Origin: an uncultured Candidatus Saccharibacteria bacterium
Lineage (GTDB): Bacteria; Patescibacteriota; Saccharimonadia; Saccharimonadales; CAZVRA01
Reading direction: 5' to 3'
Assembly (NCBI GenBank): GCA_964630055.1
Contig: CAZVRA010000002.1
Coordinates: forward strand, 79,021 to 143,020
DNA length: 64,000 nt
Position numbers and translations under genes: made by a program. Below are positions 523 through 63,837 of this stretch, in pieces. Every line of letters begins with the position of its first letter. Position 1 is the first letter of the stretch. The notes beneath the pieces are model-generated. The model did no database searches and was not told where the DNA came from. It saw only the letters and a list, made by a program, of their open reading frames with translations.

Positions 523-1146
523 ATGCGAATAAGAAATTTTCGGCGTAAGCCACAGGCAGCTAAAGCTAACTTTGCGTTTATTGATAACCAAAATTTAAAT
601 TTGGGTATTCAAAAACAGGGTTGGAAAATGGACTGGCGCAAATTCCGCAAGCTGTTAGCAGAACAGTATAATGTGTCTAAGGCGTACATGTTTATTGGTC
701 ATATGCCAGAACACGAAGACATGTACATGCAGCTGCACGACGCTGGTTATTTAATTGTTCTTAAACCAACGTTTGATATGAGTCGGCCGCAAAAACCAGA
801 AGCAGCTGTTGGCTCAAAGAGCAGCTCCCAAGAAGAAAAAAAGCCAGTAAAAGGAAATGTTGATGCTGAGCTTGTGCTGTGGGCAGTAAAAGAGTTGCCA
901 AATTACGACAAAGCGGTGATTGTTTCGGGCGATGGTGACTTTTATAGTTTGGTGGAATACCTGGATAATCAAAAAAAATTGTTCAAGATACTGGCACCCA
1001 ATATGCAATATTCTAGCCTTTATAGCCCCTACAAAGCCTATATTGATAGGCTAGATACCCTACGCAACCAGCTAGCCTACCGGCATGGGCGCAAGGCGGT
1101 CAAACCTACTTCGGCTACAGACAGAGGCAACTCTACCGCTAGCTAG
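523..1146 (+). CDS. NYN domain (LabA/DUF88-like, PIN-fold) protein
   Basis: N-terminal FAFIDNQNL and C-terminal GNVDAELVLWAV...VIVSGDGDF motifs are typical of NYN/LabA-like nucleases. A Ser/Lys-rich insert lies between them. Confidence 0.6.
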   Translation: MRIRNFRRKPQAAKANFAFIDNQNLNLGIQKQGWKMDWRKFRKLLAEQYNVSKAYMFIGHMPEHEDMYMQLHDAGYLIVLKPTFDMSRPQKPEAAVGSKSSSQEEKKPVKGNVDAELVLWAVKELPNYDKAVIVSGDGDFYSLVEYLDNQKKLFKILAPNMQYSSLYSPYKAYIDRLDTLRNQLAYRHGRKAVKPTSATDRGNSTAS

Positions 1147-13312: not shown

Positions 13313-16300
13313 TTAAATTAGTCGATTAACGATGTCTTTTTGGAACTGCAATATGCCATTATAGTCACTGGAGTAGTTTTTGGTTGGTGGAAATGAAGCA
13401 TTATTGATGTGTTGCCAAACGGCCTTTATTGTCTGCGAAGTCTGCTCAAGGTCTTCTTTAGTGGGCTTCAGGCCGCGAATTAGCTCTTTGGCGCTGGCTG
13501 CCTCTAGGTAGATTATTTGAGTGTTGATTTCTTTGTTGGTCGCACGACCGCTGCTCTGTATTAATAATGCGTAAAAAAGTAATTGTTGCCTGTGCCGCCA
13601 GGCTTTGACTTGTTTGGTGCGATCTTTGGTGTACAGGCTAGTCAGGGGTTTACCGGTTTTGTAGTCGCTAATTGTTATAGATTCTTTTGTGCTATCGATG
13701 CGGTCTAATTTACCGCGTAAACGCACGCCGCCATCTAGCGTAGCACTAAAAGACTGCTCGGGCAGCCCACCTTTTGCTAGCCAGAAAGTGTCGCTAGAAA
13801 GCAAATGCTCTAGTAAGTCTTGGCCATGCTTTAGGTAGCGTAGATGGTCATTTTGGGGCAAAAATTGCTCCTTGAGACTAGTCTCAAAAGCGTCCAGAGC
13901 GCTGCTGATAACGGCCTTGGGCTTGGCCCCCTGGTTGGTGAATAATTGGGCAATTTCTAGAGCTCTATGCATGCTGTTACCAAAGGCCATATGGGTGGTG
14001 GTTGCGGTTGGTAAGCGCATTATGTGTCGCTCAAAAAAGTAGCTTGGGCCGCCGGCTGTAACGTCCAAAAAATCTAACAAACTGGTTGCTGTAAGATGAA
14101 AATTGTCTATTATAGCGCCCAAACTAGCTTTGGATACAGCTTGATCTAGCCGTGGCCAAGCTAGGCTTTCTTGCAAGACAGCTAACTTGGTGGGCAGGCT
14201 GTTTTTGTCGGCAAAATTGGGTTCAACTACACCGTGCATCAGCGGGCTTTCGGCGACTGGTTGCCCAGCTGTATCTTGACTAAAACTACTAAAGAACAAG
14301 TTGTGTTTGGCGCGGGTGGCTGCTACAAATAAAAGTCTGGCGTAATCATCGGCATTTTCGCCAGCTGGCTGAAGCGGTAAATTTAGTGGGGGCTTGCGGC
14401 CACCGGCCACCGGTTTCCAGCTGTTGTCGACGACATCAATTATATAAACTGTATCAAACTCTAGGCCTTTGGCCTTGTGAACTGTCATTAGGTGAACCGG
14501 CCGCTCGCCAGTAATAAACATAGATTCATCGGCAATTATTTGCTCGGAATCTAGGCACAGCTGTAAGAAATCAATAAAATTATCCAGGGTCGGTTGATTT
14601 GTGCGGCTATAGCTAACAGTCAATTCTTGTAAAAGCCTAATGGCCGAAAGCGCTCTTATGTGGTCGGAAGTTGTTTGTTTGTCGGGGTTTTGGGTTTGAG
14701 CGTAGTTTGCTATTGGGCTTGTTAGGTATTGACTTGCCCTAAGACCTAAAATGTATTCTAGTATGACTGGTGCTGGCTCGTACGCCGCAGTTTTGGTCAG
14801 CCAAAGTAGCCAATCAGCGATGTTCTTGAGTTGCTTGTTGGAACTTTTTAACATAAATTTAAGCCACTGCGGATTGTGCCGATTGGTTGATGCTAGCTCC
14901 CAAAGTGTGATTGCGGGTATATCCCAGGCCGGATGACGAAGGACTTGCGACAAAAGATGGTTGATTGTTGGCTCGTCGCCACAAGATATGGCTTGCGTCA
15001 ATTGGCCGATATGTAGCACCAACTGCAGTGTAGAATGTTGCAAAACATTGTTTTGCTGCTCGTATGACAGCGGTATATTACGAGCCTGAAGTAGCTCGGC
15101 CATTTTGCGTAAGCTGGTGTGCGATCTGGCCAGCACGGCAATGTTGGCCGGTTGGTTGCCAACAGATTGCCATTGCTCGGCTATCTTGTCTGCAATAGCC
15201 GACAATTGGTGATCGGCGGTCGGATAAATTGTGTAACTTTGCTTATCGCTGGGCAGGCTTTTTATGGTGGCTTTTAGGTCTTTACTAAGCTCTGGCTGGC
15301 GCTTTACGAGCCTATCCTCGGCATGTTCAATAATATTTTGACTAATATTTAATATCTGTTGATTGGATCGATAGTTTTGACTTAGCACCACGGTTTTGGT
15401 TGTGGGATAGCTGTTTTTGAAAGATAACATGTTGTTTAGCTCGGCGCCATTGAACTTGTAAATTGCTTGGTCGTCGTCGCCAACGGCCATAAGGTTTGGC
15501 TTGCCTTCGGCTAATGGATGATCGGAAACTAATTGGGCTAGCCGCAATTGGGCGGCATTGGTGTCTTGAAATTCATCGATCAAAACGTACATAAACTGCT
15601 CCTGCACCATGGCTCGCATATCGCTATGATTTTCTAGTTGCGAAATTACCTCTATGATCATGTCGCTGTAGTCGTAATAGCCTTGTTGATGCAATTTGTT
15701 GCGGTAGGATTTATAAACATCGTTGAGGGCTAGCCACCATTCATTGCGCTGACGTTCGCTAAACATGCAGTGTTTGCCGTTTATATTTTGGACCAAAGAT
15801 TTTTTCCATTTACCGGTGTTGGTAGTTTTGTTGCTACCACTGTCTCGGTCTATGGCTGCAGCTAATGAGTCTTTGATCACCTGCCCCATATCGCGTAGTG
15901 GTGCCATGGAATTATTAATTCCCTGGTTCGGTAGAGCGTTTACGGCCGTTTGGAGCTGTGTGAGTTTTTTATAGCTCAGTGGCTGAGCGCATATTTTTGC
16001 TAATTCTGGTTCGATGACGTCGATATAGGCCAGATTAGCCTGGACCAAAGCACGCAATTTTTCTGGCGATAGGCCGGCTTCTTTGACCAATTTCAGGCCC
16101 TTTTGCACATCACGGCCAGCCGTAAACGTGCCCGCAAACTTCAGGGCCAAGGGGTTTTTAAGAGGTAGTTTTTGAAGTATGTGTTGAATTATTTCTAACT
16201 GTGAGGCATCGGGAGCAATCGTTAGTCGGGCACCGTTCCAAAAATAGTCTGGGTATTGGTTGATAATTTCGGCTGCAAAACTATGAAAGGTTTTTATTGT

Positions 16301-16579
16301 TACGCTACTGGCCTTTTGTCCGACTAGTTTTAGTAATCGTTCTTGCATGTTGATGGCTGCCTTGTTGGTGAAAGTAAGGCACAAGATTGATGAGGCGTCG
16401 CTGTCGGTGCGGCGCAATATATTGGCTACTCGCAAACTAAGAAGCTGAGTTTTGCCGGTTCCTGGACCAGCCACAACCAGGAGTGGACCATCGATGGTAT
16501 CGACAGCCTGTTTCTGCTCTGGGTTAAGCTTGGCGTACTCGAGCTGGTATTGTTTGTCTAAATCGGGTTTGGCGGGCAT
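13313..16579 (-). CDS. UvrD/PcrA-type superfamily-1 helicase with C-terminal PD-(D/E)XK nuclease domain
   Basis: Walker A AGPGTGKT, DEFQDT motif, QNYRS motif. C-terminal GKLDRID...ISDYKTGK is a RecB/Cas4-like nuclease core. Confidence 0.8.
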   Translation of the reverse strand: MPAKPDLDKQYQLEYAKLNPEQKQAVDTIDGPLLVVAGPGTGKTQLLSLRVANILRRTDSDASSILCLTFTNKAAINMQERLLKLVGQKASSVTIKTFHSFAAEIINQYPDYFWNGARLTIAPDASQLEIIQHILQKLPLKNPLALKFAGTFTAGRDVQKGLKLVKEAGLSPEKLRALVQANLAYIDVIEPELAKICAQPLSYKKLTQLQTAVNALPNQGINNSMAPLRDMGQVIKDSLAAAIDRDSGSNKTTNTGKWKKSLVQNINGKHCMFSERQRNEWWLALNDVYKSYRNKLHQQGYYDYSDMIIEVISQLENHSDMRAMVQEQFMYVLIDEFQDTNAAQLRLAQLVSDHPLAEGKPNLMAVGDDDQAIYKFNGAELNNMLSFKNSYPTTKTVVLSQNYRSNQQILNISQNIIEHAEDRLVKRQPELSKDLKATIKSLPSDKQSYTIYPTADHQLSAIADKIAEQWQSVGNQPANIAVLARSHTSLRKMAELLQARNIPLSYEQQNNVLQHSTLQLVLHIGQLTQAISCGDEPTINHLLSQVLRHPAWDIPAITLWELASTNRHNPQWLKFMLKSSNKQLKNIADWLLWLTKTAAYEPAPVILEYILGLRASQYLTSPIANYAQTQNPDKQTTSDHIRALSAIRLLQELTVSYSRTNQPTLDNFIDFLQLCLDSEQIIADESMFITGERPVHLMTVHKAKGLEFDTVYIIDVVDNSWKPVAGGRKPPLNLPLQPAGENADDYARLLFVAATRAKHNLFFSSFSQDTAGQPVAESPLMHGVVEPNFADKNSLPTKLAVLQESLAWPRLDQAVSKASLGAIIDNFHLTATSLLDFLDVTAGGPSYFFERHIMRLPTATTTHMAFGNSMHRALEIAQLFTNQGAKPKAVISSALDAFETSLKEQFLPQNDHLRYLKHGQDLLEHLLSSDTFWLAKGGLPEQSFSATLDGGVRLRGKLDRIDSTKESITISDYKTGKPLTSLYTKDRTKQVKAWRHRQQLLFYALLIQSSGRATNKEINTQIIYLEAASAKELIRGLKPTKEDLEQTSQTIKAVWQHINNASFPPTKNYSSDYNGILQFQKDIVNRLI

Positions 16580-20247: not shown

Positions 20248-21594
20248 TTAAAAATATTTAAAAAATTTGTTTTGTTGTTTAACGCTAGATATTAAATTTT
20301 TGTAAAAACTTAGTTGCTCGTCAACTGGCATTATAAGAGGTTCTGGATGGATAGGCTTGGCAGAGGTAATAAATTTTGTGGCCAATTGGCAGTGCTTTAT
20401 GCCCAACATTGCCAGCTCGATAATAATTTCAGGGGTCATTTCCCTACTCAACTTGCCTGGGTTGGCCGAATATATAATTGGCCAAGCGGATTTGCGCCGG
20501 GCGGTCAGCAGTTTTTGAATAACTATGGTGACACGACCGCGCTGCATATCTTGTTGCCAGTCTTTGAGGTCATCGCTTAGCTGCCGACAGATCAAGTAGT
20601 GATGAAAGTACTGCGTTACGTCAGCTATTTTATTGGTGGCACCGGCTGCTTCTAAAATCCCTATTGGAGCTAGGATGTGACCGTAAGAGCGCCAAGCCAA
20701 ATGCGACAGATCACCGTAATTTGGCAGACTTTTTAAGTAAAATTTCTGACCCGGCAAGCTTTTGGCTTGGGCGTTTAATTGTTCCCAGGCATTTGCCTCG
20801 TCGGTTATGTTTAGCCAGCTGTCTAGCCTATTTTGGAAAAGCAAATTTTCTGGCAGAGCTTGCCTAAAATATTTATAAGCCAACCTAAGGGCGTAGTTTG
20901 CAACACTTAGCATGTATCGCTCAAGTGGCCTGTCGTTATCAATAAAATCATCGTATAGCATGTAAGCCAGCCAACCATTGATGCTGCCTAAGTTTAGGGC
21001 ATCGACTGTGTTTTGCTCGACTTCAAGGCCAAAGGCATTTTTGATAATGTCAGCAATGGTGGCTATTTGATGTGATTGGTGGGTGCTTTGCAGCCTGGAA
21101 AGTGTCAATTGGTAGCCGGCTATCAGGTTATGCAAAGACCGGTCATGTGTTTGGCTGGCGATAATGTAGGGAGTCTGCTTTTTGGTTGTTTGCTTAATAT
21201 ACTTTGGTGTGTTTTGCGGATTTGATATTTTTTGTTTATGCCACGCGGCTAAATAATTTTTATGATTTTTATCATAAGACTGGCTACTGAGTAAACTAGT
21301 GTTTTTAATAGCTTGGTCCAAAAAACTGTTTAGCGGCAATAAGCTTACCCCTTGCCTATTGAGGTAGATTGCGATCAGGGCGTTTAGCTGCACGGTGGCT
21401 GGATCAAGCCAATCATTTAATGATGATTGGCGTCGAGCTAACCTGTATGGGCCACCTGGTTTTGCCTCGTTTTTAATAAGCCATTTGACTATTTGAGCTT
21501 GGGTTTGGGCACTATTGTGATGATTTGGGGAGTTTACCTGGAGTTCTAGTAGCTTGATTATGGTTAGATTGCTCATGATAATTTGGTGATCCAT
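20248..21594 (-). CDS. isoprenyl-diphosphate-synthase-fold-like protein (ComQ-like candidate)
   Basis: Two Asp-rich motifs in IPPS order and context: MLYDDFIDNDRPLER and RQLSDDLKDWQQDMQRGR. Its start overlaps the kinase gene end by 83 nt, and no SD was seen. Confidence 0.45.
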   Translation of the reverse strand: MDHQIIMSNLTIIKLLELQVNSPNHHNSAQTQAQIVKWLIKNEAKPGGPYRLARRQSSLNDWLDPATVQLNALIAIYLNRQGVSLLPLNSFLDQAIKNTSLLSSQSYDKNHKNYLAAWHKQKISNPQNTPKYIKQTTKKQTPYIIASQTHDRSLHNLIAGYQLTLSRLQSTHQSHQIATIADIIKNAFGLEVEQNTVDALNLGSINGWLAYMLYDDFIDNDRPLERYMLSVANYALRLAYKYFRQALPENLLFQNRLDSWLNITDEANAWEQLNAQAKSLPGQKFYLKSLPNYGDLSHLAWRSYGHILAPIGILEAAGATNKIADVTQYFHHYLICRQLSDDLKDWQQDMQRGRVTIVIQKLLTARRKSAWPIIYSANPGKLSREMTPEIIIELAMLGIKHCQLATKFITSAKPIHPEPLIMPVDEQLSFYKNLISSVKQQNKFFKYF

Positions 21595-23062
21595 ATAGTA
21601 TGTCGGGCGTCATGGTTTTTGTTGACGATTTGATTGACATAGGATTTTGGCATAAATTAACAGTAAATCTGGTGCCATCAGATGGATTTGAAGTAACAGA
21701 TATATTGCCAGCAAAATCTTGTTCGACAAATTGTTTTACAAGGTGTAGACCAATGCCCATATTGGGTTGAGCCGATTTTTTGGTGCTAAAAAACGGTTTA
21801 AATATCTGATCTAGCCGATCCTCGGGTATCCCCTGGCCCCAGTCACGAACTGCTATTTCTACAAAGCCAGGCATGGTTTTGTTAATTTTGGCCGTAATTT
21901 TTACCTGTCTTTTTTCGGTTTGTGGTTTTTGTTTTTTAGAATTAGGCTGAAGGCTGTAGGATTCTATGGCATTGGCAATAAGGTTGCCAATTAGCTGACA
22001 GAACTTTGCAGAATTACCTTTAATGGTTAAGTTTGTGGGTGATAGCGAAGTGTATATTAGTTTTACGTCTGCCGAACGGGCGCGATGTTCGATGATGTTT
22101 AGTATTTGTTTTATCTCTGCATCAATCCGGAATTTATGATGGTTGGCTTCTTGTTTAAGTTGGTGCCTTGCGGCACTTATGTATGATTCAATTGTTCTAA
22201 GACTAGCCACGGTTTGTGCTAAGGCTTGCTTTTTGTTTGTTGTGCGCCTGACCTGTCTAGATTGTAGGTGGTCAAGATTAATAGTGGCGGCGGCCAGCGG
22301 GTTAGCTATGTCGTGGATTAAGCCAGCACTTAATCTGCCAAATTCGGCAAACCGTTCAAGCTCCATAATCCTTAACAATTGGGCTTCTTCGAGTTCTTTG
22401 GTGCGCTTTTTGACTGTTAACTCAAGCTGGTCTCTTTGCTCCAATAATTTACGTTCTGATGTGCGGGCACGTTTTAGGGACTGGTCTATTTCTCGGTTAG
22501 CTAACCAACTTACGAGCGCAATAACGCTATAGACCAGCGCAAAACCTAAGGCATCGGCAGCTTCTAACTTGGCTCTTAGCCAACTATAGTTAGGGCTAAG
22601 ATGCCCGTTGGCTTGCAACCAGGCAATGATACAAATTGCCATAGATTGCATTATTGCCACCAACAATCCAGACTTTGCACTGATTAGGACTCCGGCAATG
22701 ACTATTGATAGACATAGTAGAAGCTGTGCCATTGGCAAGTTGAAGCTCCATTTTAGTACTAAATGAATACCGTAAGCTTCTAGGAGTGCAAATAGTGCTG
22801 TCGCAGCTATTTTGTAATGTCCTCGACGCGACAAATACCAGAAAAAGCATAGACTTGCAGTGAAGATGCAGAGTATACCAATGGAGCTTTCTGGATTTGG
22901 CACCGATTCGGTGAATCGGTTAATTGCCGATACGATGATGGCCATTATTCCGGCAGTTGTCAGCCCGGCTAATAGTAAGTTGGTTATTAGCTCGCGGCGG
23001 TAACAATCTGGATCTGATGCTGACCTGGGTGACAGTAGTTTCTGACGCAATTTTTGTCTCAT
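21512..23062 (-). CDS. sensor histidine kinase with ~6-TM N-terminal membrane domain
   Basis: About six hydrophobic helices in the first ~190 aa with short loops, then a coiled coil. H-box LIHDIANPL, N-box NLIANAIES, G-boxes DWGQGI and GIGLHLV. Confidence 0.85.
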   Translation of the reverse strand: MRQKLRQKLLSPRSASDPDCYRRELITNLLLAGLTTAGIMAIIVSAINRFTESVPNPESSIGILCIFTASLCFFWYLSRRGHYKIAATALFALLEAYGIHLVLKWSFNLPMAQLLLCLSIVIAGVLISAKSGLLVAIMQSMAICIIAWLQANGHLSPNYSWLRAKLEAADALGFALVYSVIALVSWLANREIDQSLKRARTSERKLLEQRDQLELTVKKRTKELEEAQLLRIMELERFAEFGRLSAGLIHDIANPLAAATINLDHLQSRQVRRTTNKKQALAQTVASLRTIESYISAARHQLKQEANHHKFRIDAEIKQILNIIEHRARSADVKLIYTSLSPTNLTIKGNSAKFCQLIGNLIANAIESYSLQPNSKKQKPQTEKRQVKITAKINKTMPGFVEIAVRDWGQGIPEDRLDQIFKPFFSTKKSAQPNMGIGLHLVKQFVEQDFAGNISVTSNPSDGTRFTVNLCQNPMSIKSSTKTMTPDILYGSPNYHEQSNHNQATRTPGKLPKSSQ

Positions 23063-23278: not shown

Positions 23279-23974
23279 TTAGTGTTTTTTACTTATTGTT
23301 CTTGGCGGTAGCTCAATACGATATCCCATGCCATGGACCGTCTTTATGAGGTTACGGCCAAAAGGTCTGTCGACACGGTCCCTGAGATGTTTGATATGGA
23401 CGTCTATGGTATGGAGGCCGGTGTCAGATTCGTCTGACCAAATATGGGCCGCCAAACTTGCTCTTGACACTACGATTCCAGCATTTTGCATCAGATACTC
23501 GAGTATATCGAATTCTTTGCGGCGCAATTCTATGGGGTTGCCGCTTCGCTCGACTTTGCGATTTGTGCTATCCAAGGTAAGATCGGCAATAGACATCCTG
23601 CTACGACAATAGCTGCTATCTCGGTTTCTAAGCATGGCTCTGAGCCTGGCTCTTAATTCGTCTAGACTGAATGGCTTTGTTAGGTAATCGTTGGCACCGC
23701 TATCTAGCAAAATAACCTTGCTAATTATTTTAGCTTCACCGCTGATGACTAGAATAGGCGTTTGAATGCCAAGACTTCGTAAGTGCTCGCAAACTTTGAG
23801 ACCGGGCATATCTGGCAGATTGAGGTCTAGAAGGATGCCGTCGTAACTACTAGTTTCGGCTTTTTGTATGCCGGACATGGCCGACTGGGCAGTATCGAGC
23901 GCATAATTAGGCCCAAGCGCCCTATAAAGGGCTAGCGTTAAGCTCGTATCATCCTCGATAATAAGTATTTTCAT
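23279..23974 (-). CDS. OmpR/PhoB-family response regulator
   Basis: REC domain (EDD...DLNLPDM...KP) plus a winged-helix output domain (LRRKEFDILEYL...VHGMGYRIE). Confidence 0.9.
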   Translation of the reverse strand: MKILIIEDDTSLTLALYRALGPNYALDTAQSAMSGIQKAETSSYDGILLDLNLPDMPGLKVCEHLRSLGIQTPILVISGEAKIISKVILLDSGANDYLTKPFSLDELRARLRAMLRNRDSSYCRSRMSIADLTLDSTNRKVERSGNPIELRRKEFDILEYLMQNAGIVVSRASLAAHIWSDESDTGLHTIDVHIKHLRDRVDRPFGRNLIKTVHGMGYRIELPPRTISKKH

Positions 23975-24046: not shown

Positions 24047-24066
24047 TGTTAAATAATTGTTAAATT
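24047..24066 (-). promoter_or_regulatory. direct-repeat box site 1 (AATTTAACAATTATTTAACA on the minus strand)
   Basis: TTTAACA repeated at 11-bp period. On the minus strand it is followed by CATACT/TACTAT at 9-11 nt and TATAAT at 36 nt. It lies 73-92 nt upstream of the RR ATG. Confidence 0.5.
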
Positions 24067-24138: not shown

Positions 24139-24208
24139 GATACTAAAAACATGTTAAAATATAGAACGTGTTTGGCAATTATTGATCAATTTTTGTTAAT
24201 CATTTTAA

Positions 24209-24283
24209 TAGGGCGTGGCCAAGTGGTAAGGCACTGGGTTTTGGTCCCAGCATTCGGGGGTTCGAATCCCTCCGCCCTAGCCA
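24209..24283 (+). tRNA. tRNA-Gln (UUG)
   Basis: Cloverleaf folded by hand: acceptor TAGGGCG/CGCCCTA, anticodon loop TTTTGGT, T-loop GGTTCGAATCC, encoded CCA. Confidence 0.9.
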
Positions 24284-26611: not shown

Positions 26612-29065
26612 CTAAGCGGCCTTTTTAGGCTTACGGCTGCGGTTGCCGCTAGACTTTGTGGACTTTTTTGCTGTTTGTCTAGTTGTTCGGGCAGTTGATC
26701 GGACGCCACGAGCTGGTCGTTTGCGAGCTGGCGCTTCGGCCAATAATTTTTTAGCCTGCTCGGCATCAACGGTTTTGGCATCGACATCTTTAGGAATCTT
26801 GGCATTTTTGGTGCCATCGGTTACGTACGGCCCAAAACGCCCATTCAAGACTTTTAAGCCGTTACCAAAATCGGCAATGTTCTTGGCCGCTTCGGCAGCC
26901 AGCTTGGCATCGTATAGCTCTTGAGCTTTAGCCAGGCTAATCCGATGTGGGTCCTCTGGTTTAATGCTGACAAATAATTTGCCAACCTGAATATACGGCC
27001 CAAAACGCCCAATATTGGCTTTGATTTCTTGGCCATCTTTGGTTTGACCAACTAACCGTGGTAGTTCAAAAGCTTTAGTTGCTTGCTCCAATGTTACGGT
27101 ATCTATTCGAGTGCCTTCCGGCAATGGTGCGAAGTGTGGCTTGGCGGCTTCGTCTTCGGTGGCTCCTAGCTGCAGCATGGGCCCAAAACGTCCGAATCGA
27201 GCAATAATTGGTTTGCCCGATTTGGGGTCGATGCCCACTTGTCGGCTCTCACCTACACTGCTTCGGTCTATGCTGCCCGACTGCTCTATTAACTTGTGAA
27301 ATGGCTGATAAAAATTGTGGAGCATGGTGTTGCGCTCTAGCTTATCTTCGGCAATTTGATCAAAATCTTCTTCTACATGGGCGGTAAATCCATAATCGAC
27401 GATGTTGGTAAAATGCTTGGTTAGGAAATCGCTAATGAGTTCTCCGCTAGGGGTCGGTACTAATTTGCCGCGGTCAGATCCTGATTTTTCTTGTTCGATG
27501 CTGCGTTCTACGACCTGGTTATTTGCTAATTTATTTTTGCTGCTTGGCGAGTAGCTAAGCACGATAATATCTCGCTCAACTCCTTCATTTTCGCCTCGTT
27601 GCACATAGCCACGAGTTTGAACGGTGTCGATAATCGTGGCGTATGTGCTGGGGCGGCCAATCCCCAGTTCCTCCAATTTTTTGACTAAGCTACCTTCGCT
27701 GTAGCGAGCTGGTGGTCGAGCAAAAACCTGTCGAGCCGTTGCTTGCTCTAAGGTTAGCGGATCTCCACTGGCTACTGGCGGTAGCAATATTAGGCTACTA
27801 TCTTTTTTGGTGGCATTATAAACCTTAAGAAATCCGTCAAAAATAACTACTTCGCCTTTGGCTTCGAAGGAAGTGTTTGACTTGGTGTTAATGTTTTTAT
27901 CTGAGTCTGAATTAACGGGTATGGTAATAACGGTCTTTTCGAGCTTGGCTGGTGACATCTGCGAAGCGAGTGTGCGACGGCGTATTAGATCGTATAATTT
28001 TTGGTTATAACTGTCGCTGCTAGCTTTTTGAAGAGCTATGTTGGTTGGCCTGATAGCTTCGTGAGCTTCTTGGGCGCTGGAATTTTTGGTGCGGAAATTA
28101 CGGGTCTGAACGTATTGTTTGCCGTATTCTTTTTCTATAAAGCTGGCAGCGCTGGCAATTGCCTGTTGGCTTAAGTTGACGCTATCGGTACGCATGTAGG
28201 TGATCTTACCTTCTTGGTATAGCTTTTGAGCAGCTGCCATTGTGGCTTTGCTGCTAAAACCCAGTTTAGAGTTAGCTTCTTGTTGCAAAGTGCTGGTGGT
28301 AAACGGAGCCCCAGGGTTGCGAGTAGCTGGGCTTTGGGTTACAGAGGATACGACAAAATCTTGGTTGTTTAGGCCAGCCAAAAAAGCTGCTGCCTGCTGT
28401 TCGGTATCGAATCGTTGGGATAATTCTGCGCTAAAATCTTGTTTTTTGTGCAAAAAACTAGCCGTTACTTTGAACTGGCTAGAGCTTTGGTGAGCACGAA
28501 TTTCCCGTTCGCGTTCAACCAATAACCTCACGGCTGGGCTCTGGACACGGCCGGCACTTTTGCCTCCTGGTACTTTTTGCCAGACAACTGGACTGAGCTC
28601 AAAGCCCACAATGCGGTCCAGAATTTGCCGGGCCTGCTGGGCCTTTACTAAGCTCATATCTACCGTACGCGGCTGCTTGATTGATTTTGTTATAGCATCT
28701 TTTGTTATTTCGTGAAAAACGATTCGTTTGGTGGTCTTTGGATCCAGCTTGAGGACTTCGCATAAATGCCAAGCAATTGCTTCACCTTCGCGGTCTTCAT
28801 CGGTTGCTAGCCAAACTGCCTGAGCAGATTTTGCGGCTTTTTTGAGTTCGGCAATGACTTTCTTTTTTTCGGGGTCGATTTGGTAGGTGGTCTTAAAGCC
28901 ATTACCTATATCTATTGGTGGCGAACCATCTGGATTTTTTTTGGCGATTGACCTAATATGGCCAATACTACTTAGGACATGAAAATCAGGACCCAGGTAC
29001 TTTTCGATAGTTTTTGCCTTGGCCGGACTCTCTACTATTACTAAATTGGCGGGGTTTTTACTCAT
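26612..29065 (-). CDS. topA: DNA topoisomerase I
   Basis: Toprim VESPAKAKTIEKYLG, active-site YMRTDS, three C-terminal GRFGP(Y/M) repeats and a Lys/Arg tail. Start set at MSKNPANL (29065), not the track start 29110. Confidence 0.9.
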   Translation of the reverse strand: MSKNPANLVIVESPAKAKTIEKYLGPDFHVLSSIGHIRSIAKKNPDGSPPIDIGNGFKTTYQIDPEKKKVIAELKKAAKSAQAVWLATDEDREGEAIAWHLCEVLKLDPKTTKRIVFHEITKDAITKSIKQPRTVDMSLVKAQQARQILDRIVGFELSPVVWQKVPGGKSAGRVQSPAVRLLVEREREIRAHQSSSQFKVTASFLHKKQDFSAELSQRFDTEQQAAAFLAGLNNQDFVVSSVTQSPATRNPGAPFTTSTLQQEANSKLGFSSKATMAAAQKLYQEGKITYMRTDSVNLSQQAIASAASFIEKEYGKQYVQTRNFRTKNSSAQEAHEAIRPTNIALQKASSDSYNQKLYDLIRRRTLASQMSPAKLEKTVITIPVNSDSDKNINTKSNTSFEAKGEVVIFDGFLKVYNATKKDSSLILLPPVASGDPLTLEQATARQVFARPPARYSEGSLVKKLEELGIGRPSTYATIIDTVQTRGYVQRGENEGVERDIIVLSYSPSSKNKLANNQVVERSIEQEKSGSDRGKLVPTPSGELISDFLTKHFTNIVDYGFTAHVEEDFDQIAEDKLERNTMLHNFYQPFHKLIEQSGSIDRSSVGESRQVGIDPKSGKPIIARFGRFGPMLQLGATEDEAAKPHFAPLPEGTRIDTVTLEQATKAFELPRLVGQTKDGQEIKANIGRFGPYIQVGKLFVSIKPEDPHRISLAKAQELYDAKLAAEAAKNIADFGNGLKVLNGRFGPYVTDGTKNAKIPKDVDAKTVDAEQAKKLLAEAPARKRPARGVRSTARTTRQTAKKSTKSSGNRSRKPKKAA

Positions 29066-29176
29066 GTTTATACGAATCTTTATCTTAACGGCATTTGTGT
29101 GCAAATGCAACAGCGCCTTACCTTACACGATTAGCTACCTATTGGTCAAGTAGTAGTTGCCTTAGTTTTGGTAAAT

Positions 29177-30115
29177 TTAGAGTGCCGACCATTGCCCAGG
29201 AGTTAAGCTTCTTATGTGGCCAGACAACTCTAGCATGGTTAAGGCTTGCTGCACTTGGCGCAGAGGTAACGCTGATTTTTCTAACAATTCGTTTGTATAT
29301 ATTATGCCAGAGCGAATTTGTTGGAGTAGTTTAGCCTGGACTTGGTCTTTGGGTAGCGGCAGTTCTTGAGCTGGCACGGCGTTTGGAACGATAATATCTA
29401 GAATATCTTGCAAGCTGGTGACGGGTATTGCTCCCTGCCTTATTAGCTTGTTGGTTCCTTGGCTAGTGGGACTGTTAATATTGCCAGGCACAGCAAAAAC
29501 ATCTATGCCAAGCTCCAGTGCAAACTCGGCTGTGTGCAAACTACCACTACGCTGAGCTGCTTCTGTAATGATTACTGCCTGGGCAAGGCCAGCTATAATA
29601 CGGTTTCTAGCCACAAATTGCCAGCGGCCTGGGTTAGCTGACTCCCCTGGTCCGTACTCGCTTACTAGACTGCCCTTTTGCGACAGTATTTGATGAGCCA
29701 ATGGTTGGTGGCTAGATGGATAAACATGCTCAATGCCACATGGCAATACGGCTATGGTATGACCACCGGCTGCAATAGCCGCCTGGTGCGCCAGCGAGTC
29801 GGCACCGATGGCTAGGCCACTAACAATAGTAACGCCTTTTAATGCTAGCCCACTCGCAATATAATTAGTTACCCATCGACCATAGCTACTAACTGCTCGA
29901 CTGCCTACAATAGCAACTGTTGGGCCGCCTAGCAGACGGAGTGGATCTAGACCCATATACCACAGTTGTTTAACCGCTGGTTGGACCAGGTTTAATTGCC
30001 CCAAACTTGCCGGGTTTATAGGGTGGTACTGACTTTTTGCTGGTGATTTATTGATACTCATCATGCTTATGTGCCATGCAAGTAATGCCATGACATTGTA
30101 TTGATTATTTAACAA
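29177..30115 (-). CDS. dprA: DNA processing protein DprA
   Basis: Rossmann-like core GSRAVSSYG...SGLAIGADSLAHQAA...NRIIAGL...SGSLHTAEFALELG. Start uncertain: TTG 30115 or an ATG at 30091, 30064 or 30061. Confidence 0.85.
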   Translation of the reverse strand: MLNNQYNVMALLAWHISMMSINKSPAKSQYHPINPASLGQLNLVQPAVKQLWYMGLDPLRLLGGPTVAIVGSRAVSSYGRWVTNYIASGLALKGVTIVSGLAIGADSLAHQAAIAAGGHTIAVLPCGIEHVYPSSHQPLAHQILSQKGSLVSEYGPGESANPGRWQFVARNRIIAGLAQAVIITEAAQRSGSLHTAEFALELGIDVFAVPGNINSPTSQGTNKLIRQGAIPVTSLQDILDIIVPNAVPAQELPLPKDQVQAKLLQQIRSGIIYTNELLEKSALPLRQVQQALTMLELSGHIRSLTPGQWSAL

Positions 30116-30130
30116 AATTTATTTTTAGTA

Positions 30131-30159
30131 TTGACATAAAGGCATTTATTTGCTAAAAT
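30131..30159 (+). promoter_or_regulatory. near-consensus sigma70-type promoter (TTGACA-17 nt-TAAAAT)
   Basis: TTGACA at 30131-30136, an exact 17-nt spacer, TAAAAT at 30154-30159. Confidence 0.6.
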
Positions 30160-30232
30160 CGCAAACTGTGATTCTGTATAAGCATTGCTTGCAGATACCA
30201 CGTACCTTCTACCCCAAATTCTAACCGGCAGT

Positions 30233-30252
30233 TGTTAAATAATTGTTAAATT
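30233..30252 (-). promoter_or_regulatory. direct-repeat box site 2 (identical 20-mer to site 1)
   Basis: Exact 20/20 match to 24047-24066 in the same orientation. TAGAAT lies 9 nt downstream on the minus strand, pointing at dprA. Extra TGCTAA/TGTTAG hexamers flank it. Confidence 0.5.
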
Positions 30253-30593
30253 ATCGTAATAATTGCTAAGTGTTAGATTGTTTTAGAGCGCGCGAGCCAA
30301 AGTTGTTACCCTCCACTTTTTTTCGCTGCCTCCGGTTAGCCGGATTGGGCAGCGCTCTAAGACAAACTAACCCCTTTAACCTGATGTCTGTTCCAGATTG
30401 CGTTTTCGCATTTTGGACCGACCCCAATCAGTGTGAGTACGTCAGTATGACCTCGTTTATCCTCGGATAAACCAGGCGGCGCGAGTCTTTATGGAGTTTT
30501 GGACATCGACGCTTCACCGGGTGGGTTGAAGGGTGGTTTATAGAGGTAATCCCGGCGGTGGGCCAACGAACCGGGGTATTTGCCTCTTGAAAT

Positions 30594-30633
30594 GAGCCTC
30601 TAGCGGTGCCCACCCCCTCTAGAGGCTCTTTTT
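30594..30633 (+). terminator. rho-independent terminator
   Basis: GAGCCTCTAG / CTAGAGGCTC 10-bp stem, 15-nt loop, TTTTT run. The loop GCCCACC is complementary to GGTGGGC at 30557-30563. Confidence 0.7.
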
Positions 30634-30655
30634 GTTGATTTTATGCGACAGTTTT

Positions 30656-31303
30656 ATGACAGATAATTTACCCGACAACCTACTATCTCCAAAAGTGTAT
30701 TTCGATAATGGTTTTGACAGTCTTTGCCATCAGGCGATTGAGCAATCAGTCGAGCACGGTGCGGCTAAAATTAATGGTTTCTTAGGAAAAACTTCTTTGG
30801 AGCGTTTACAAGAAAGGTGTCCATCTGACGCAGAACTTTTGGCCGCCAAGATACCGGAAATTGCTCAATTTATAACCTATTTATGCCACGACGCCAAAAA
30901 CACCTGGAGTGTTTCGGCCGAAATTGCTTATGTACAAAATACTAGTGCCTATAATCAGACAATTGTGTCTCATCTTGATCCGCCTGCTTATGGCAAGGAC
31001 GGACTTAGCCTGGTATTGCCTTTAACTGGGGCCAAAGCGCTGTTTGGAGCCGATGATGAGCGTTTTGGGGATTTAAACGGAGTGTGTACCAAGCGGCAAT
31101 CATCTTATGTTACCGAATACGGGCCTGGCGACGCTATACTCCTGCGGCAAAACGTCGCCTCGGTCAACGCCCAGCCAAAGTTAAAGCTCCAATCTTGGCA
31201 TTACGGTTTTGTAGTAGCTAAACCAGGTATGATGCCAACAGAATGGAACAGAAAAATACTATTAATTGACCTAGCTAATCCTGACGTTAGATATGCCGGC
31301 TAG
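30656..31303 (+). CDS. hypothetical protein, possible Fe(II)/2-oxoglutarate-oxygenase-like fold
   Basis: HxD (SHLDP) ... GPGDAILL ... H (SWHYG) spacing resembles the DSBH facial triad. Start moved to ATG 30656 because the track TTG 30632 lies inside the terminator T-run. Confidence 0.35.
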   Translation: MTDNLPDNLLSPKVYFDNGFDSLCHQAIEQSVEHGAAKINGFLGKTSLERLQERCPSDAELLAAKIPEIAQFITYLCHDAKNTWSVSAEIAYVQNTSAYNQTIVSHLDPPAYGKDGLSLVLPLTGAKALFGADDERFGDLNGVCTKRQSSYVTEYGPGDAILLRQNVASVNAQPKLKLQSWHYGFVVAKPGMMPTEWNRKILLIDLANPDVRYAG

Positions 31304-35086: not shown

Positions 35087-36058
35087 CTAATTGGGGTTAG
35101 TTGGGTTAGGCGGGATGGTTTGTGGTTTGTCTATAACGGCTTGTTCGGAACTGGCTTCTTGCTCGCTGACTTGGTTGATCACTGCCTGAGCGGTAGGTAC
35201 GGCCGCCGAAGTGGCAGCTTTGATTTTGGTTTCTTTGGCTTCTTCCTGTGCTATTAGAGCCTCCAAGTTACTGCCTTGTTGCGACAAGTCATTAATAGGT
35301 GTAATTACTTTGTTGTGAACACTAGTTTTGCTGTCGTCGGGTGTAGCGGCCGGTGCTGCTGTTGGGACGCTGGGCACAGCTGCAATCGAAGCACCAGCAG
35401 CATCGTTTGGCACGGGGGTGGGTGCTACAACTTGTTCGTTAACCACCGGTGCTGGGCTGACAGCAGCTACTGCGCTGGCCAGAACCTGATCGTTAGTAGG
35501 TGTTGGTGTTGGCGCCGGTGCGGCAGCATCCTGAGCCGCGGCTGGCTCGACAATAGTAGCGTTACTGACGCCATCTATGACTGGAGTTGGAGTTGGAGCA
35601 TCTACAGAACTATCGGTTGGCGTAGGTATAGCGGTACTTATGCCGTCGTTGCTGGTAGCTGCTGGTGCGGCTACTGGAGCCGGAGCTGTTTGACCATCCA
35701 GGACCTGTTGGGCTACTTGGACGACATCTTCTAGTGTGACTTGGGACTTAACAAGGTAGCGGTCAGCACCCAGCTTGTCGGCCCGAGTTTTGTCCTCGGC
35801 CTGGCTAAGGGCGGTCATCATAATTACTTTGGTTTCTTTGGTTTCGGGGGTGCTGCGCAGTATGTCTAGCATGTCAAAACCACTAATTTTGGGCATCATG
35901 ATGTCGCTGATGATTAGGTCGGGCTTTTCTTTAACAGCTAAGGCTAGAGCCTCTTCGCCGTCTTTGGCCGAGACAATTTCGTAGCCCTCTGCCAGTAGGC
36001 GCGCGCCGTAGATTTCTCGCAGATTATTGTCGTCTTCGACCAACATGATTTTTGCCAT
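35087..36058 (-). CDS. response-regulator receiver protein with ~200-aa Ala/Pro/Thr-rich tail, no DNA-binding domain
   Basis: REC domain (LVEDD...SDIMMP...KS) followed by low-complexity PAPVAAPAAT... sequence. Confidence 0.75.
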   Translation of the reverse strand: MAKIMLVEDDNNLREIYGARLLAEGYEIVSAKDGEEALALAVKEKPDLIISDIMMPKISGFDMLDILRSTPETKETKVIMMTALSQAEDKTRADKLGADRYLVKSQVTLEDVVQVAQQVLDGQTAPAPVAAPAATSNDGISTAIPTPTDSSVDAPTPTPVIDGVSNATIVEPAAAQDAAAPAPTPTPTNDQVLASAVAAVSPAPVVNEQVVAPTPVPNDAAGASIAAVPSVPTAAPAATPDDSKTSVHNKVITPINDLSQQGSNLEALIAQEEAKETKIKAATSAAVPTAQAVINQVSEQEASSEQAVIDKPQTIPPNPTNPN

Positions 36059-36160
36059 ACTAGGTTAATCCTTCGTGCGCTTATGTTAACTTATTAGCAT
36101 TATACCATGGTTTTTGGGCACTTTATCAACCAAAAATAAAGGGTTCAAAAAGCGCAATAA

Positions 36161-37549
36161 TTAATTAGCCGACTGGGGCCGTATAATATTGGGTTCGGCG
36201 TTTGGTTGGCTAGTAGCAGCGGCATTTTTGGCAGTTTTTTGACTGGCCTCGACAAGCTGGCTGGACGATATTCTAGGCAAATCTATATAGAACGTGCTGC
36301 CCTTGTTTAATTCGCTTTCTACCCAGATGCGGCCGTTATAAAGCTCAATTATTTTGCGGCAGATAAAAAGCCCTAGGCCGGTGCCGCCAATTGTGCGGGT
36401 GGCACGGTTGTCGATGCGATAAAATTTTTGGAACAGATGAGGTATGTCTTCGGTGGCTATGCCAGCACCGGTGTCGCGAACGTAGATTTGGACAATATCG
36501 TCGTCGCCGGTTAGGCCAATCGATATGCCGCCTTGGTTGGTATATTTTACGGCATTGTCGAATAGGTTTATTATAATTTCGCGCAAGCGTTCAGGATCGA
36601 CCATAACGTAGTACAGTGGTTTGAGCACCCTTGTGCTGCCGACTTCTTCGCCGTCATCGGTTGTTGGGAGTGGGGTTGCCCGCTGCTTATTGTCGCCCAC
36701 AATATATTCGAGCCGCAGGTTTTTTTTCTGGGCGGCAAAACGCAAATCTTCTACTAATTTGTCCAAAAAACTGCTTATTTCGGTGGCAACTGGATGGTTA
36801 CTAATACGCCCATCTTCTGCCCTGGCACTGGTTAGTAGGTCTTGGAATAATGTGCCAAGATGTTGCGTGGCTTCGTGGGCCCTTAGCAAATATTGTCGTC
36901 CGCGGTAGTCTATGGTGCTGACTTTTTCGTTTAGCGCCAGCGCCAAGTAGCCTTCGATGGCTGCCACCGGTGTGCGCATTTCGTGGCTGGCCGTGCTGAT
37001 AAATTCGGCGCGCTGCCTTTCGGCTTGGCGCTCTTTGGTGATGTCTCTAAAAACTCCGACAAGTCCGGTGATTTCGTTGTCGTCGTTTATTAATGGTGCC
37101 AGGCTGATGGCGACATTAGGTGTTTTGTTGGATTTGGTCACTAAAAGCAGGCTATCTTCGCGCAATGGTTCGCCTTGTTCTAGCACTTTTTCGAACGGGT
37201 TATCTACGTCCTGACAGGGGTGTCCTTTGTGATCGGTCAGTTTTATGACGGTGTTGTAGGCCAGGCCGCTAACTTCTTGCGGCCAGCCAGTGATTTGAGC
37301 AGCAGCTGGGTTAAACATGCGAATAATTCGATCCGAGTCGACCACAATAACGCCGTCATTTATGGAGCTTAAAATAATGTCGGATTGAACTTTTTCGGCC
37401 TGCAATTGTTCATGCAGAAGGCCATTGTTAGCTGGCGCTTGGCCGGCGCTGCCGCCCTTTTGCCGTAACTTTTGTAAAAGTAAAGATATCCCGAACACTA
37501 CTGCCGAGATAACTAGACCTATCCCACCGATAAAAAATAAAATACCCAT
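36161..37549 (-). CDS. PAS-domain sensor histidine kinase
   Basis: N-terminal TM, PAS-like region, H-box SHEMRTP, HATPase (DTGAGI, GTGLGL). Confidence 0.85.
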   Translation of the reverse strand: MGILFFIGGIGLVISAVVFGISLLLQKLRQKGGSAGQAPANNGLLHEQLQAEKVQSDIILSSINDGVIVVDSDRIIRMFNPAAAQITGWPQEVSGLAYNTVIKLTDHKGHPCQDVDNPFEKVLEQGEPLREDSLLLVTKSNKTPNVAISLAPLINDDNEITGLVGVFRDITKERQAERQRAEFISTASHEMRTPVAAIEGYLALALNEKVSTIDYRGRQYLLRAHEATQHLGTLFQDLLTSARAEDGRISNHPVATEISSFLDKLVEDLRFAAQKKNLRLEYIVGDNKQRATPLPTTDDGEEVGSTRVLKPLYYVMVDPERLREIIINLFDNAVKYTNQGGISIGLTGDDDIVQIYVRDTGAGIATEDIPHLFQKFYRIDNRATRTIGGTGLGLFICRKIIELYNGRIWVESELNKGSTFYIDLPRISSSQLVEASQKTAKNAAATSQPNAEPNIIRPQSAN

Positions 37550-41524: not shown

Positions 41525-41928
41525 GCAGCCCGGCCATTCGGCCAGTCTCGGAAGAAGTCACTGTACTGGCCGAAGCTGGCGTCTCGGTGCACGACGGGTT
41601 TCCCAATGCGGGCTTCGATGGAGCGCTAACTGGCCTAGACATTACTAGGCTGCTAGTTCAGAGGCCATCTAGCACATTTTTTATGCGGGCCCAGGGCGAC
41701 AGCGGCCAAGAGCATGGCATTTGCCATAATGACGTAATGGTTATAGACCGAGCGGCTCAGCCGTTAGATTCTGATTTGGTAGTTTGGTGGCGTGATGGCT
41801 TTAATGTTTCGACAGCAAAGGTGGCTGTCAAGTTGCGGCTAGATACGCCGATATGGGGCGTGGTAACGGCCACTATTCGTTTGCGTCGCCCGCCCGAGGG
41901 TTTTGTTGGTGAGCCACGTGGCAAATAA
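41521..41928 (+). CDS. umuD: UmuD-like S24 peptidase (LexA-fold)
   Basis: GFPNAG...STFFMRAQGDSG...NDVMVIDR pattern matches UmuD GFPSPA...TFFVRVxGDSM...GDLLVVD. Lies immediately upstream of umuC. Confidence 0.65.
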   Translation: MSSPAIRPVSEEVTVLAEAGVSVHDGFPNAGFDGALTGLDITRLLVQRPSSTFFMRAQGDSGQEHGICHNDVMVIDRAAQPLDSDLVVWWRDGFNVSTAKVAVKLRLDTPIWGVVTATIRLRRPPEGFVGEPRGK

Positions 41929-43225
41929 TTTGGCTGCTCCGGCCATTGCCCTGGTCGATTGCGATAATTTCTTTGTATCTTGCGAGCGGCTATTTAGACC
42001 CGACCTGGAGGGCCGCCCAGTAGTTGTTCTTAGTAGCAACGATGGCTGCGTTGTTTCCCGGAGTCAAGAAGCCAAAGCCATAGGAATCCCCATGGGCGCG
42101 CCAGCTTTTCGTTACCGAGAGCTTTTTATTCGCCAACGAGTCGTGCAGTTTAGTGCCAATTTTGAGCTATATGGCGATGTATCACGTCGTATAGTTCGCA
42201 TACTAACAGAGCATACCCCCCGCCTAGAAGTTTATTCTATAGATGAGTCGTTCCTAGACCTGGGCGAGCTAGGTAACAATATTTGTAAGACAACATATGT
42301 CAGGCAGTTACGGCAAAGGCTGCTTGGCGAAGTCGGCATACCGGTGTCGATTGGGGTGGCTACTACCAAAACACTGGCCAAGCTAAGTGCCGCAGTGGCC
42401 AAGCGGACCACCAATTTACAGGGCGTACTAGACACAACCACTTGTTCCAAGGATGCAATCAACAACTGGCGTCGTAAGTTGCCAGTTGAAGAAGTTTGGG
42501 GTGTCGGCAGGCGTTATGGGCCGCTGCTCAGGTCGCAAGGGCTGGCTACAGCCCAGGATATGGCAACGATGCGGCCACGGCTAGCTCGTAAATTAATGGG
42601 CGTTAGGGGCGAGCAGACCTCTCGCGAGCTAAGCGGCCAGCCTTGCCTGCGCTTGCAGCCAACCGACTCCCTGCCCAAAAGCATCATGCGCACTCGCACT
42701 TTTGGCCAAGATACCAGCAGCCTAGACGTTTTAGTGGCTGCTCTAGCACGTTTTGCTTCGGTAGCTACTCATCGATTGCGGGCTTCGGGCCAGCTTGCTA
42801 CTACTGCCGGCTGGTTTACTACCAGCAGCCCGCATAAACCTGGCTATGGTTACTGGCAGCACAAAGTTAAGCTAACCGTGCCCACGGCCGATCCGGCCAT
42901 TGTTTTAGACCTCATCCGTCCTTCGATTTTTGGGCAGCATAATTCTGGTCGAATCTATCATCGGGCTGGTTTTTGGTTGGCAGACTTCGTTCCTTCCAGG
43001 AGTCTACAGACAGACTTATTTGGTCAGCTAGACCCAGCTATAGTCGATAGCCGGCGGTTGCGTTGGCAAGCTATAGATATGCTCAACAATAGATACGGAC
43101 GGCATACTATTCGTTTGGCGGCCGAAGATTTGGCTACAACTTGGCAGCCCAGCCCTAGGTGCCGTAGTCCAGCCTATACCACTAACTGGAGCGACATACC
43201 TATAGCTGCTTTCCAAGCTTTTTAG
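41903..43225 (+). CDS. umuC: Y-family translesion DNA polymerase UmuC-like
   Basis: IALVDCDNFFVSCERLFRPDL...VVVLSSNDGCVVSRS...YSIDESFLD motifs. The true start is probably GTG 41918, nearer the conserved N-terminus. Confidence 0.85.
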   Translation: MLVSHVANNLAAPAIALVDCDNFFVSCERLFRPDLEGRPVVVLSSNDGCVVSRSQEAKAIGIPMGAPAFRYRELFIRQRVVQFSANFELYGDVSRRIVRILTEHTPRLEVYSIDESFLDLGELGNNICKTTYVRQLRQRLLGEVGIPVSIGVATTKTLAKLSAAVAKRTTNLQGVLDTTTCSKDAINNWRRKLPVEEVWGVGRRYGPLLRSQGLATAQDMATMRPRLARKLMGVRGEQTSRELSGQPCLRLQPTDSLPKSIMRTRTFGQDTSSLDVLVAALARFASVATHRLRASGQLATTAGWFTTSSPHKPGYGYWQHKVKLTVPTADPAIVLDLIRPSIFGQHNSGRIYHRAGFWLADFVPSRSLQTDLFGQLDPAIVDSRRLRWQAIDMLNNRYGRHTIRLAAEDLATTWQPSPRCRSPAYTTNWSDIPIAAFQAF

Positions 43226-63758: not shown

Positions 63759-63817
63759 GTCTTTAGTATAACAAGTAGTGCCTCGATACAAACCCTTAGT
63801 TTGGACTTTTTTAGAAA

Positions 63818-63837
63818 TATTTAACAAGTATTTAACA
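63818..63837 (+). promoter_or_regulatory. direct-repeat box site 3 (TATTTAACAAGTATTTAACA)
   Basis: 18/20 identity to the reverse complement of sites 1 and 2. TATTTAACAA occurs twice at 11-bp period. GATAAT lies 6 nt downstream on the plus strand. Confidence 0.45.

Follow-up and report, generated by a model that had tools for sequence, protein, structure and literature searches.

Why should one 20-nucleotide (nt) sequence stand, without a single change, both upstream of a response regulator gene and upstream of dprA in an uncultured Candidatus Saccharibacteria bacterium? In the 64-kilobase (kb) stretch of DNA analysed here (the window, to which all coordinates refer unless another locus is named), the 20-mer TGTTAAATAATTGTTAAATT occurs on one and the same strand at 24047–24066, upstream of the regulator gene (site 1), and at 30233–30252, upstream of dprA (site 2), and a third copy with one mismatch to this box, TGTTAAATACTTGTTAA, lies on the minus strand at 63821–63837 beside radC (site 3). 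The first-pass annotation had described the second copy as a box in the same orientation as the first, with dprA and topA as the downstream genes on the minus strand, and both statements hold, as the repeat of the 20-mer is exact and the Pfam domains of the two genes agree. What that reading overlooked is the primary identity of the region, since 30131–30636 is a strongly promoted, conserved structured RNA gene that was previously uncatalogued (Table 1). Site 2 is housed in one of the hairpins of this RNA, and on balance it appears to form a regulator-dependent promoter that faces the opposite way, toward dprA and topA.

To characterize the RNA gene, 80 loci around DprA homologues were fetched by an alignment-based genome scan, and the RNA was found divergent from dprA in 56 of them (nhmmer, E down to 1e-55). 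The DNA of 30100–30640 is far more conserved than DprA itself, and the promoter GTATTGACA-N17-TGCTAAAAT is invariant, with GTATTGACA and TGCTA unchanged in an alignment of 20 genomes. Downstream of it, invariant blocks alternate with hairpins of variable length, and RNAalifold yields 64 pairs, 26 of which show compensatory changes. In the consensus structure 97% of the alignment cells pair, whereas 37–53% do so with slid partners, and the observed covariation was reached by none of 500 shuffles. Helix 1, whose 3′ partner is CTAAAACAAACTAAC, is paired in 99.7% of the cells across 20 sequences, the window RNA folds with z = −8.3, and the G–U pairs assign the RNA to the plus strand. The length of the RNA ranges from 330 to 470 nt across Saccharibacteria. 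It is located between dprA and pth, for instance at 6154–6672 (−) in locus L001, at 9494–9973 (−) in L002 and at 9560–9925 (−) in L063.

Searches with Rfam 15 returned only transfer RNAs (tRNAs) at gathering thresholds in the window and 10 relatives, and nothing relevant within 29900–30800 even at E values up to 10, while a literature search found no description of this RNA. An identity with RNase P, tmRNA, SRP or 6S RNA was rejected, because there is no Rfam match and none of their hallmark blocks is seen. A leader or riboswitch was rejected as well, since the downstream gene varies from locus to locus and in about half of the loci is oriented convergently, and so was a protein-coding reading of 30270–30470, as the stop-free stretches of the relatives keep neither one frame nor one place nor one length. 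Pairing of GGGGTGGG with the CCCACCCC loop in a pseudoknot is plausible and is not claimed here, the two sides being almost invariant, with two variants that lack compensation.

The box lies in hairpin P2, the base of which is formed by the conserved ATTCTAAC (30218–30225) and GTTAGA (30272–30277). The P2 loop measures 4–6 nt in 26 of 44 other loci, is a plain hairpin of 20–45 nt in 16 and carries boxed inserts of 63 nt in the remaining two, and the 46-nt insert of the window folds as an extension of the stem (z = −3.0). Counted from the promoter at 30131–30159, the box occupies about +67 to +86 of the plus-strand RNA, which bears out the earlier suggestion that it lies within a divergent transcript, the promoter being a strong one. 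The same structure accounts for the neighbouring hexamers TGCTAA, TGTTAG and TGTTTT, which had been taken for a cluster of TGTTAA-like elements around the box. These hexamers are common in the window (65, 31 and 100 copies, respectively); TGTTAG (30271) and TGTTTT (30279) are invariant also in relatives without the box and belong to the 5′ strand of the helix with CTAAAACAAACTAAC, and TGCTAA (30264) lies in the 3′ strand of the hairpin that the insert forms. The cluster is therefore explained by RNA structure and not by half-sites. TAGAAT, the hexamer on the dprA side of the box, corresponds on the opposite strand to ATTCTA, a block of the RNA that does not vary.

The box itself has a different standing. 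Perfect TGTTAA-N5-TGTTAA sites number three in the 64 kb, whereas shuffles predict 0.02, and each of the three lies between genes; they are the only boxes of the window, and they are found at the regulator operon, dprA and radC. Its minus-strand form is TTTAAC-AATTA-TTTAAC-N10-(−10 hexamer), with the two TTTAAC hexamers 11 base pairs (bp) apart, which corresponds to one helical turn. At site 2 the box is followed on this strand by ACTGCCGGT and then TAGAAT (30223–30218), and at site 1 by TTTGGCTGG and then CATACT (24037–24032); the equal distance of the two hexamers had been correctly read from the sequence in the first-pass annotation. Aligned on this strand, site 1 is TTTAAC AATTA TTTAAC ATTTGGCTGG CATACT, and site 2 is TTTAAC AATTA TTTAAC AACTGCCGGT TAGAAT. 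A −10-like hexamer stands at exactly N10 in all eight promoters of this kind (site 1, site 2 and six orthologous regulator promoters), and since such hexamers make up only 2.2% of window hexamers under the same rule, the placement is not due to chance. Site 3 departs from this geometry, with AATTAA at N10 and GATAAT at N7.

The six orthologous promoters belong to cassettes retrieved from other Saccharibacteria (loci L081, L082, L083, L204, L205 and L206), whose regulators are 52–57% identical to that of the window. Their gene order is regulator, a peptide of 38–41 amino acids, kinase and a protein of ~630 amino acids, with a polyprenyl synthase in five of the six, and the upstream neighbours of the six regulator genes all differ. 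Directly upstream of every one of these regulator genes stands KTT(A/C)AT-N5-TTTAAT-N10-GATAAT/AATAAT, the spacer being AATTW in five loci and ATTTA in L082, where the distal hexamer is GTTCAT, and window sites 1 and 2 align base for base with all six. In the window, site 1 is 73 nt from the regulator gene. The recognition helix (residues ~186–201) is LHTIDVHIKHLRDRV in the window regulator and TNTVDVHIKYLRDKI in the orthologues, and this difference parallels that of the hexamers, TTTAAC in the window as against TTTAAT in the orthologues. A similar plan is found in CiaR promoters, which consist of NTTAAG-N5-TTTAAG with a −10 at ten bases and no −35 (PMC3091779). Because six orthologous regulator genes carry the same plan directly upstream and CiaR promoters are alike, the box most likely serves the cassette's own response regulator as its operator. 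The regulator reaches no cut-off of the NCBIfam equivalog models, scoring 112 bits with the YycF model (cut-off 340) and 149 bits with the PhoB model (cut-off 296), and its nearest solved structures are all of the OmpR family. In two loci, L083 and L204, a reverse box-like TTTCATAAyTwTTTAAT overlaps the regulator start codon (9990–10006 (−) in both), which may represent a second autoregulatory site.

When a matrix was built from the regulator promoters (the six orthologues and window site 1), site 2 scored 22.2 bits and site 3 scored 17.5 bits. A scan of 1.44 megabases (Mb) with this matrix gave 34 matches of at least 14 bits, where 8.2 were expected under the null, with the regulator promoters, radC and the window sites at the top, and the expression KTTAAY-N5-KTTAAY gave 12 matches in 1.32 Mb of loci, where 3.05 were expected. 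An origin of the copies from a mobile element was rejected, as the three share ~22–24 bases and no flanks. A metagenome scan for GTTAATAATTWTTTAAT returned, among the matches listed, random AT-rich sequence with no regulator or radC nearby.

A possible signal for the cassette is suggested by its small open reading frame, in which an xPW motif near the C-terminus is kept in all seven cassettes. Together with the polyprenyl synthase of the relatives, this peptide looks like a candidate for a modified-peptide signal of the ComX/ComQ style. The peptide frames lie at 9321–9437 in L081, 10711–10833 in L082, 10712–10837 in L083, 10710–10829 in L204, 10715–10834 in L205 and 10721–10837 in L206, and in the five relatives that have it the polyprenyl synthase is two genes further on. 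A tblastn search with the relatives' polyprenyl_synt proteins found no polyprenyl synthase in the 64-kb window, where a protein of 448 amino acids is a shortened homologue of the ~630-residue protein.

How could such an operator serve dprA from within an RNA gene? The order dprA–topA is kept in 67 loci, and the homologues of DprA, the regulator and RadC assign the window to Saccharibacteria (TM7, Patescibacteria), the closest relatives reaching only 53–69% protein identity. The relatives have ~20 nt between the dprA start codon and the −35 element of the RNA promoter, so the control region of dprA must extend into the RNA gene, where the P2 loop is the closest stretch of DNA that can vary freely; in the window, too, dprA begins within tens of bases of this promoter, and longer dprA starts at 30091 and 30115 are possible alternatives. 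As the box stands exactly 10 nt from TAGAAT, which is the autoregulatory geometry, a promoter toward dprA–topA that depends on the regulator is favoured, and we lean toward this interpretation of site 2.

In the mechanism that we propose, the phosphorylated regulator would bind site 2 as a head-to-tail dimer that replaces a −35 element, and it would recruit RNA polymerase to a leftward transcript predicted to start near 30211 and to run into dprA–topA. The operator would be accommodated in the lineage-specific extension of P2, inside an RNA gene transcribed rightward from ~30166. Since the two promoters would converge and overlap by ~45 nt, regulator binding or leftward transcription may lower RNA output. 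Taken as a whole, the scheme of a peptide-sensing two-component regulator that directly switches on dprA–topA and radC through an operator built into the hairpin of the new RNA, so that one binding event raises dprA and lowers the RNA like a toggle, is offered tentatively, and a bearing on transformation would be its presumed consequence.

The second candidate target is radC. In the cassette carrier L082, GTTAATAATTATTTAAT is located 21 nt before TATAAT-N6-ATG of radC (box at 1854–1870 (−)), and in L210, TTTAATAATTATTTAAT is located 20 nt before TATAAT-N7-ATG of radC (box at 9960–9976 (+)). The flanks of these two boxes differ, and because they diverge the box itself appears to be under selection; it was not found at three other radC loci. 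The position of the box at the regulator, dprA and radC supports control of DNA-processing genes, in a pattern that is not clean. An earlier proposal had extended such control to DNA-uptake or processing genes, of which the processing part gains support from the dprA geometry and the radC copies, and for the uptake part the 64-kb window contains no DNA-uptake genes. With TATAAT (TATACT in the window, 63752–63760) placed 6–7 nt before the radC ATG in three genomes, radC appears to be leaderless. In L207 and L208 radC is preceded not by the box but by the palindrome GTGAAAAACT(A/C)TTCAC (9890–10000 in both), and an HTH_3 gene lies ~1 kb upstream of radC on the opposite strand, so another regulator may act on radC there. 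The public calls of radC (62955–63827, 290 amino acids, with its start inside the box) and dprA (29177–30115, 304 amino acids) look too long at the N-terminus, as the homologues measure about 248 and 287 amino acids. To the right of site 3, open reading frames of 46 (minus strand) and 19 amino acids (plus strand) gave no informative matches.

Several observations weigh against a dprA-facing promoter and a common regulation with radC. TAGAAT is invariant for reasons of RNA structure and is not independent promoter evidence, which leaves only the 10-nt placement of the box as such. Among the 44 other dprA loci the box occurs in this hairpin in only two, L023 and L034, and there it faces the RNA core and not dprA, at 21–22 nt from TAGATT. 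As the TTAA core is palindromic, the orientation of the box rests on its flanking bases and on the alignment to the regulator promoters. In addition, a leftward transcript must cross the strong RNA promoter, and the window radC box points away from its gene and is 49 nt from the −10, unlike those of L082 and L210. The box of L023 (9781–9797 (−)) and L034 (7825–7841 (−)) is TTTAAT-N5-TTTAAT in the sense of the RNA, and outside it the two 63-nt inserts differ. None of the 80 dprA loci includes the regulator, the kinase or radC. Box-like repeats are also found between dprA and topA in L048 (11324–11340 (+)) and L057 (10821–10837 (+)), the latter abutting the topA start codon downstream of a TATAAT, and these could be topA operators or chance AT-rich matches. 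Two further candidates were set aside: a basal dprA promoter behind the RNA promoter (TTAGCA-18-AATACT), whose last −10 base is not conserved (AATACC in L002), and a box-like match in Nanosynbacter (L063, L061 and L054), which is the inverted repeat GGTTAA..TTAACC of hairpin P1.

These points give weight to a serious rival, in which the box is still the operator of the regulator and the RNA gene is its target at site 2, either through a roadblock to elongation or through an internal promoter (box-N21-23-TAGATT) that would yield a 5′-shortened RNA. The box lies within the transcribed region, and two separate lineages have it in this hairpin, facing one way or the other, as would suit a roadblock that is independent of orientation. 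The sense-strand box of L023 and L034 precedes TAGATT by 21–22 nt, which resembles the radC promoters (21 nt in L082, 20 nt in L210), and CiaR provides the precedent of an OmpR-type regulator that controls RNA genes. However, the sense spacing to TAGATT is 23 nt in the window and not 20–21, the antisense spacing is exactly the 10 nt of all seven regulator promoters, and a shortened RNA would lose conserved 5′ blocks and half of P2. Roadblocks by OmpR-family regulators are not known as a common mechanism. Control of the RNA in place of dprA is possible and less likely than a promoter toward dprA, and the two targets are not mutually exclusive.

If the box were read on the plus strand instead, it would fit TGTWAH-N5-TGTWAH exactly, and the regulator might be a WalR-like one that controls envelope genes, acting at site 1 toward tRNA-Gln and a D-Ala-D-Ala carboxypeptidase, with the dprA and radC copies incidental or repressive. 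TGTTAA occurs at 24152 and 24194 upstream of the tRNA, a Peptidase_S11 gene follows at 24320, and the orthologous cassettes lie among glycosyltransferase, sortase and polysaccharide-deacetylase genes. This is nevertheless improbable, as the boxes of the orthologues (KTTAAT..TTTAAT, reverse complement ATTAAA..ATTAAM) do not fit TGTWAH, the regulator remains at 112 bits against a YycF cut-off of 340, in seven genomes with otherwise differing neighbours the box is linked to the regulator gene by where it stands and by its distance from the −10, and the radC link recurs in three genomes. It is still less probable that the insert is a mere structural expansion of the hairpin, which acquired its identity to site 1 by short sequence transfer and has no regulatory effect. 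The hairpin does tolerate unrelated inserts of 20–63 nt in many relatives, and the window insert forms a good stem; however, twenty identical bases, a third copy and the exact N10 placement are hard to expect without selection, outside the window, long inserts occur only in L023 and L034 (63 nt), and these too are boxed though their remainder differs, while shuffled loci would yield one box in about 430 kb. A promoter toward dprA–topA is the reading of site 2 that we retain.

Among the side features of the window, the site 1 intergenic region (24141–24199 (+)) carries the two TGTTAA hexamers mentioned above, ahead of the tRNA-Gln gene at 24209–24283. Other genes of the window are a KwaB-like (Kiwa defence) fragment at 6–512 (+), a NYN-domain protein at 523–1146 (+), an AddA-like helicase-nuclease at 13313–16579 (−), a second two-component pair (PAS kinase and receiver protein) at 35087–37549 (−) and a Y-family polymerase at 41903–43225 (+), and none of them has the box.

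Table 1. Positions of the RNA gene, the box copies and the genes associated with them in the 64-kb window.
Feature	Position	Strand	Remarks
Structured non-coding RNA gene, ~470 nt	30166–30636	+	5′ end inferred from the promoter; 3′ end at a hairpin and T-run
RNA promoter TTGACA-17-TAAAAT	30131–30159	+	TG at 30151–30152; 11 of 12 consensus positions
Lineage-specific insert, 46 nt	30226–30271	+	Extends RNA hairpin P2 and carries the box
5′ strand of long helix, GTTAGATTGTTTTAGAGCG	30272–30290	+	Includes TGTTAG and TGTTTT; helix 1 has 17 pairs
Terminal hairpin with invariant 17-nt loop GCGGTGCCCACCCCCTC, then T-run	30594–30633	+	Stem covaries, 10 pairs changed on both sides
Site 2 operator core (putative)	30234–30250	−	Exact repeat of site 1; TTTAAC-AATTA-TTTAAC toward dprA; 20-nt identity over 30233–30252
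−10-like hexamer TAGAAT	30218–30223	−	10 nt downstream of the site 2 core; read from sequence
Site 1 operator core (putative)	24048–24064	−	In front of the regulator gene; can be aligned with six orthologous promoters at every position
Site 3 operator copy TTTAAC-AAGTA-TTTAAC (putative)	63820–63836	+	62 nt upstream of radC in opposite orientation; one mismatch to the box
OmpR/PhoB-family response regulator	23279–23974	−	Presumed to bind the box; Pfam Response_reg PF00072 and Trans_reg_C PF00486
Peptide open reading frame, 39 amino acids	23105–23224	−	Ends in ...SLPWSQE; between regulator and kinase genes; translation checked
Sensor histidine kinase	21512–23062	−	Pfam HATPase_c; 42–44% identical to kinases of orthologous cassettes
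dprA	29177–30064	−	Pfam DNA_processg_A PF02481 (2.8e-65) and DprA_WH; ATG at 30064 fits homologues best; translation checked
topA	26612–29110	−	66 nt downstream of dprA; Pfam Topoisom_bac, Toprim and Toprim_C_rpt
radC	62955–63758	−	Pfam RadC (2.4e-36); NCBIfam RadC equivalog passed; TATACT 6 nt before ATG

Saccharibacteria owe their genetic tractability to natural competence. No account of how competence is regulated in these bacteria turned up in a literature search, and a 2024 perspective on the phylum makes no mention of two-component systems, response regulators or quorum and treats competence only as uptake machinery and as a genetic tool. Now that a 17-bp operator can be proposed along with a regulator and two possible targets (dprA–topA and radC), such regulation becomes directly testable. 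The RNA, which accompanies dprA throughout the class, is a candidate new family from a phylum whose genomes are very small. Its variable hairpin, with an operator inside, would illustrate how compact genomes fit regulation into DNA that already serves another purpose.

Several known systems share parts of this arrangement. WalR (YycF) binds TGTWAH-N5-TGTWAH, which the plus-strand box of the window matches letter for letter, but since the orthologous boxes are unmatched and the regulator is no YycF equivalog, this fit is judged coincidental, and the functional strand predicted here is the opposite one. In the Pho box, the −35 element gives way to a pair of direct repeats spaced by one helical turn, ~10 bp upstream of the −10, which is the same plan, likewise served by a winged-helix regulator; however, its core is CTGTCAT-N4-CTGTCAT, the window regulator is below the PhoB cut-off, and no phosphate genes are nearby.

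The ComQXPA system of Bacillus, with which the cassette had previously been identified, resembles it in the small peptide with a conserved Trp near the C-terminus beside a membrane kinase and a regulator, in the polyprenyl_synt gene of the relatives, ComQ being of that family too, and in the suspected link to transformation. The identification fails on the regulator, which is OmpR-type with Trans_reg_C and not a NarL/LuxR GerE-type ComA, on the operator, a direct repeat where that of ComA is an inverted one, and on the lack of a polyprenyl synthase in the window; gene order differs as well, and there is an extra protein of ~630 amino acids. By its domains and gene content, then, the cassette is not ComQXPA, and the resemblance is one of analogy only.

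The streptococcal CiaR, whose CiaRH regulon includes csRNA genes, is likewise an OmpR-family regulator with a direct repeat of TTAA cores, a 5-bp spacer and a −10 ten bases after the repeat, in a system linked to both RNA genes and competence. CiaR requires a G at the end of the hexamer, where C or T stands here, and the recognition helix reads (T/L)(N/H)T(V/I)DVHIK(Y/H)LRD here as compared to VVEVYVSKVRKKL in CiaR. In contrast to CiaR, the putative operator at site 2 is enclosed by an RNA gene from which it faces away, the cassette has a peptide gene, and the phylum is another one. Finally, the pneumococcal ComX regulon and the Haemophilus CRP-S regulon both include dprA and radC. The motif found here differs from both the ComX box and the CRP-S site, and the presumed regulator is a two-component one that would act directly, but as in these regulons dprA and radC carry a shared upstream motif.

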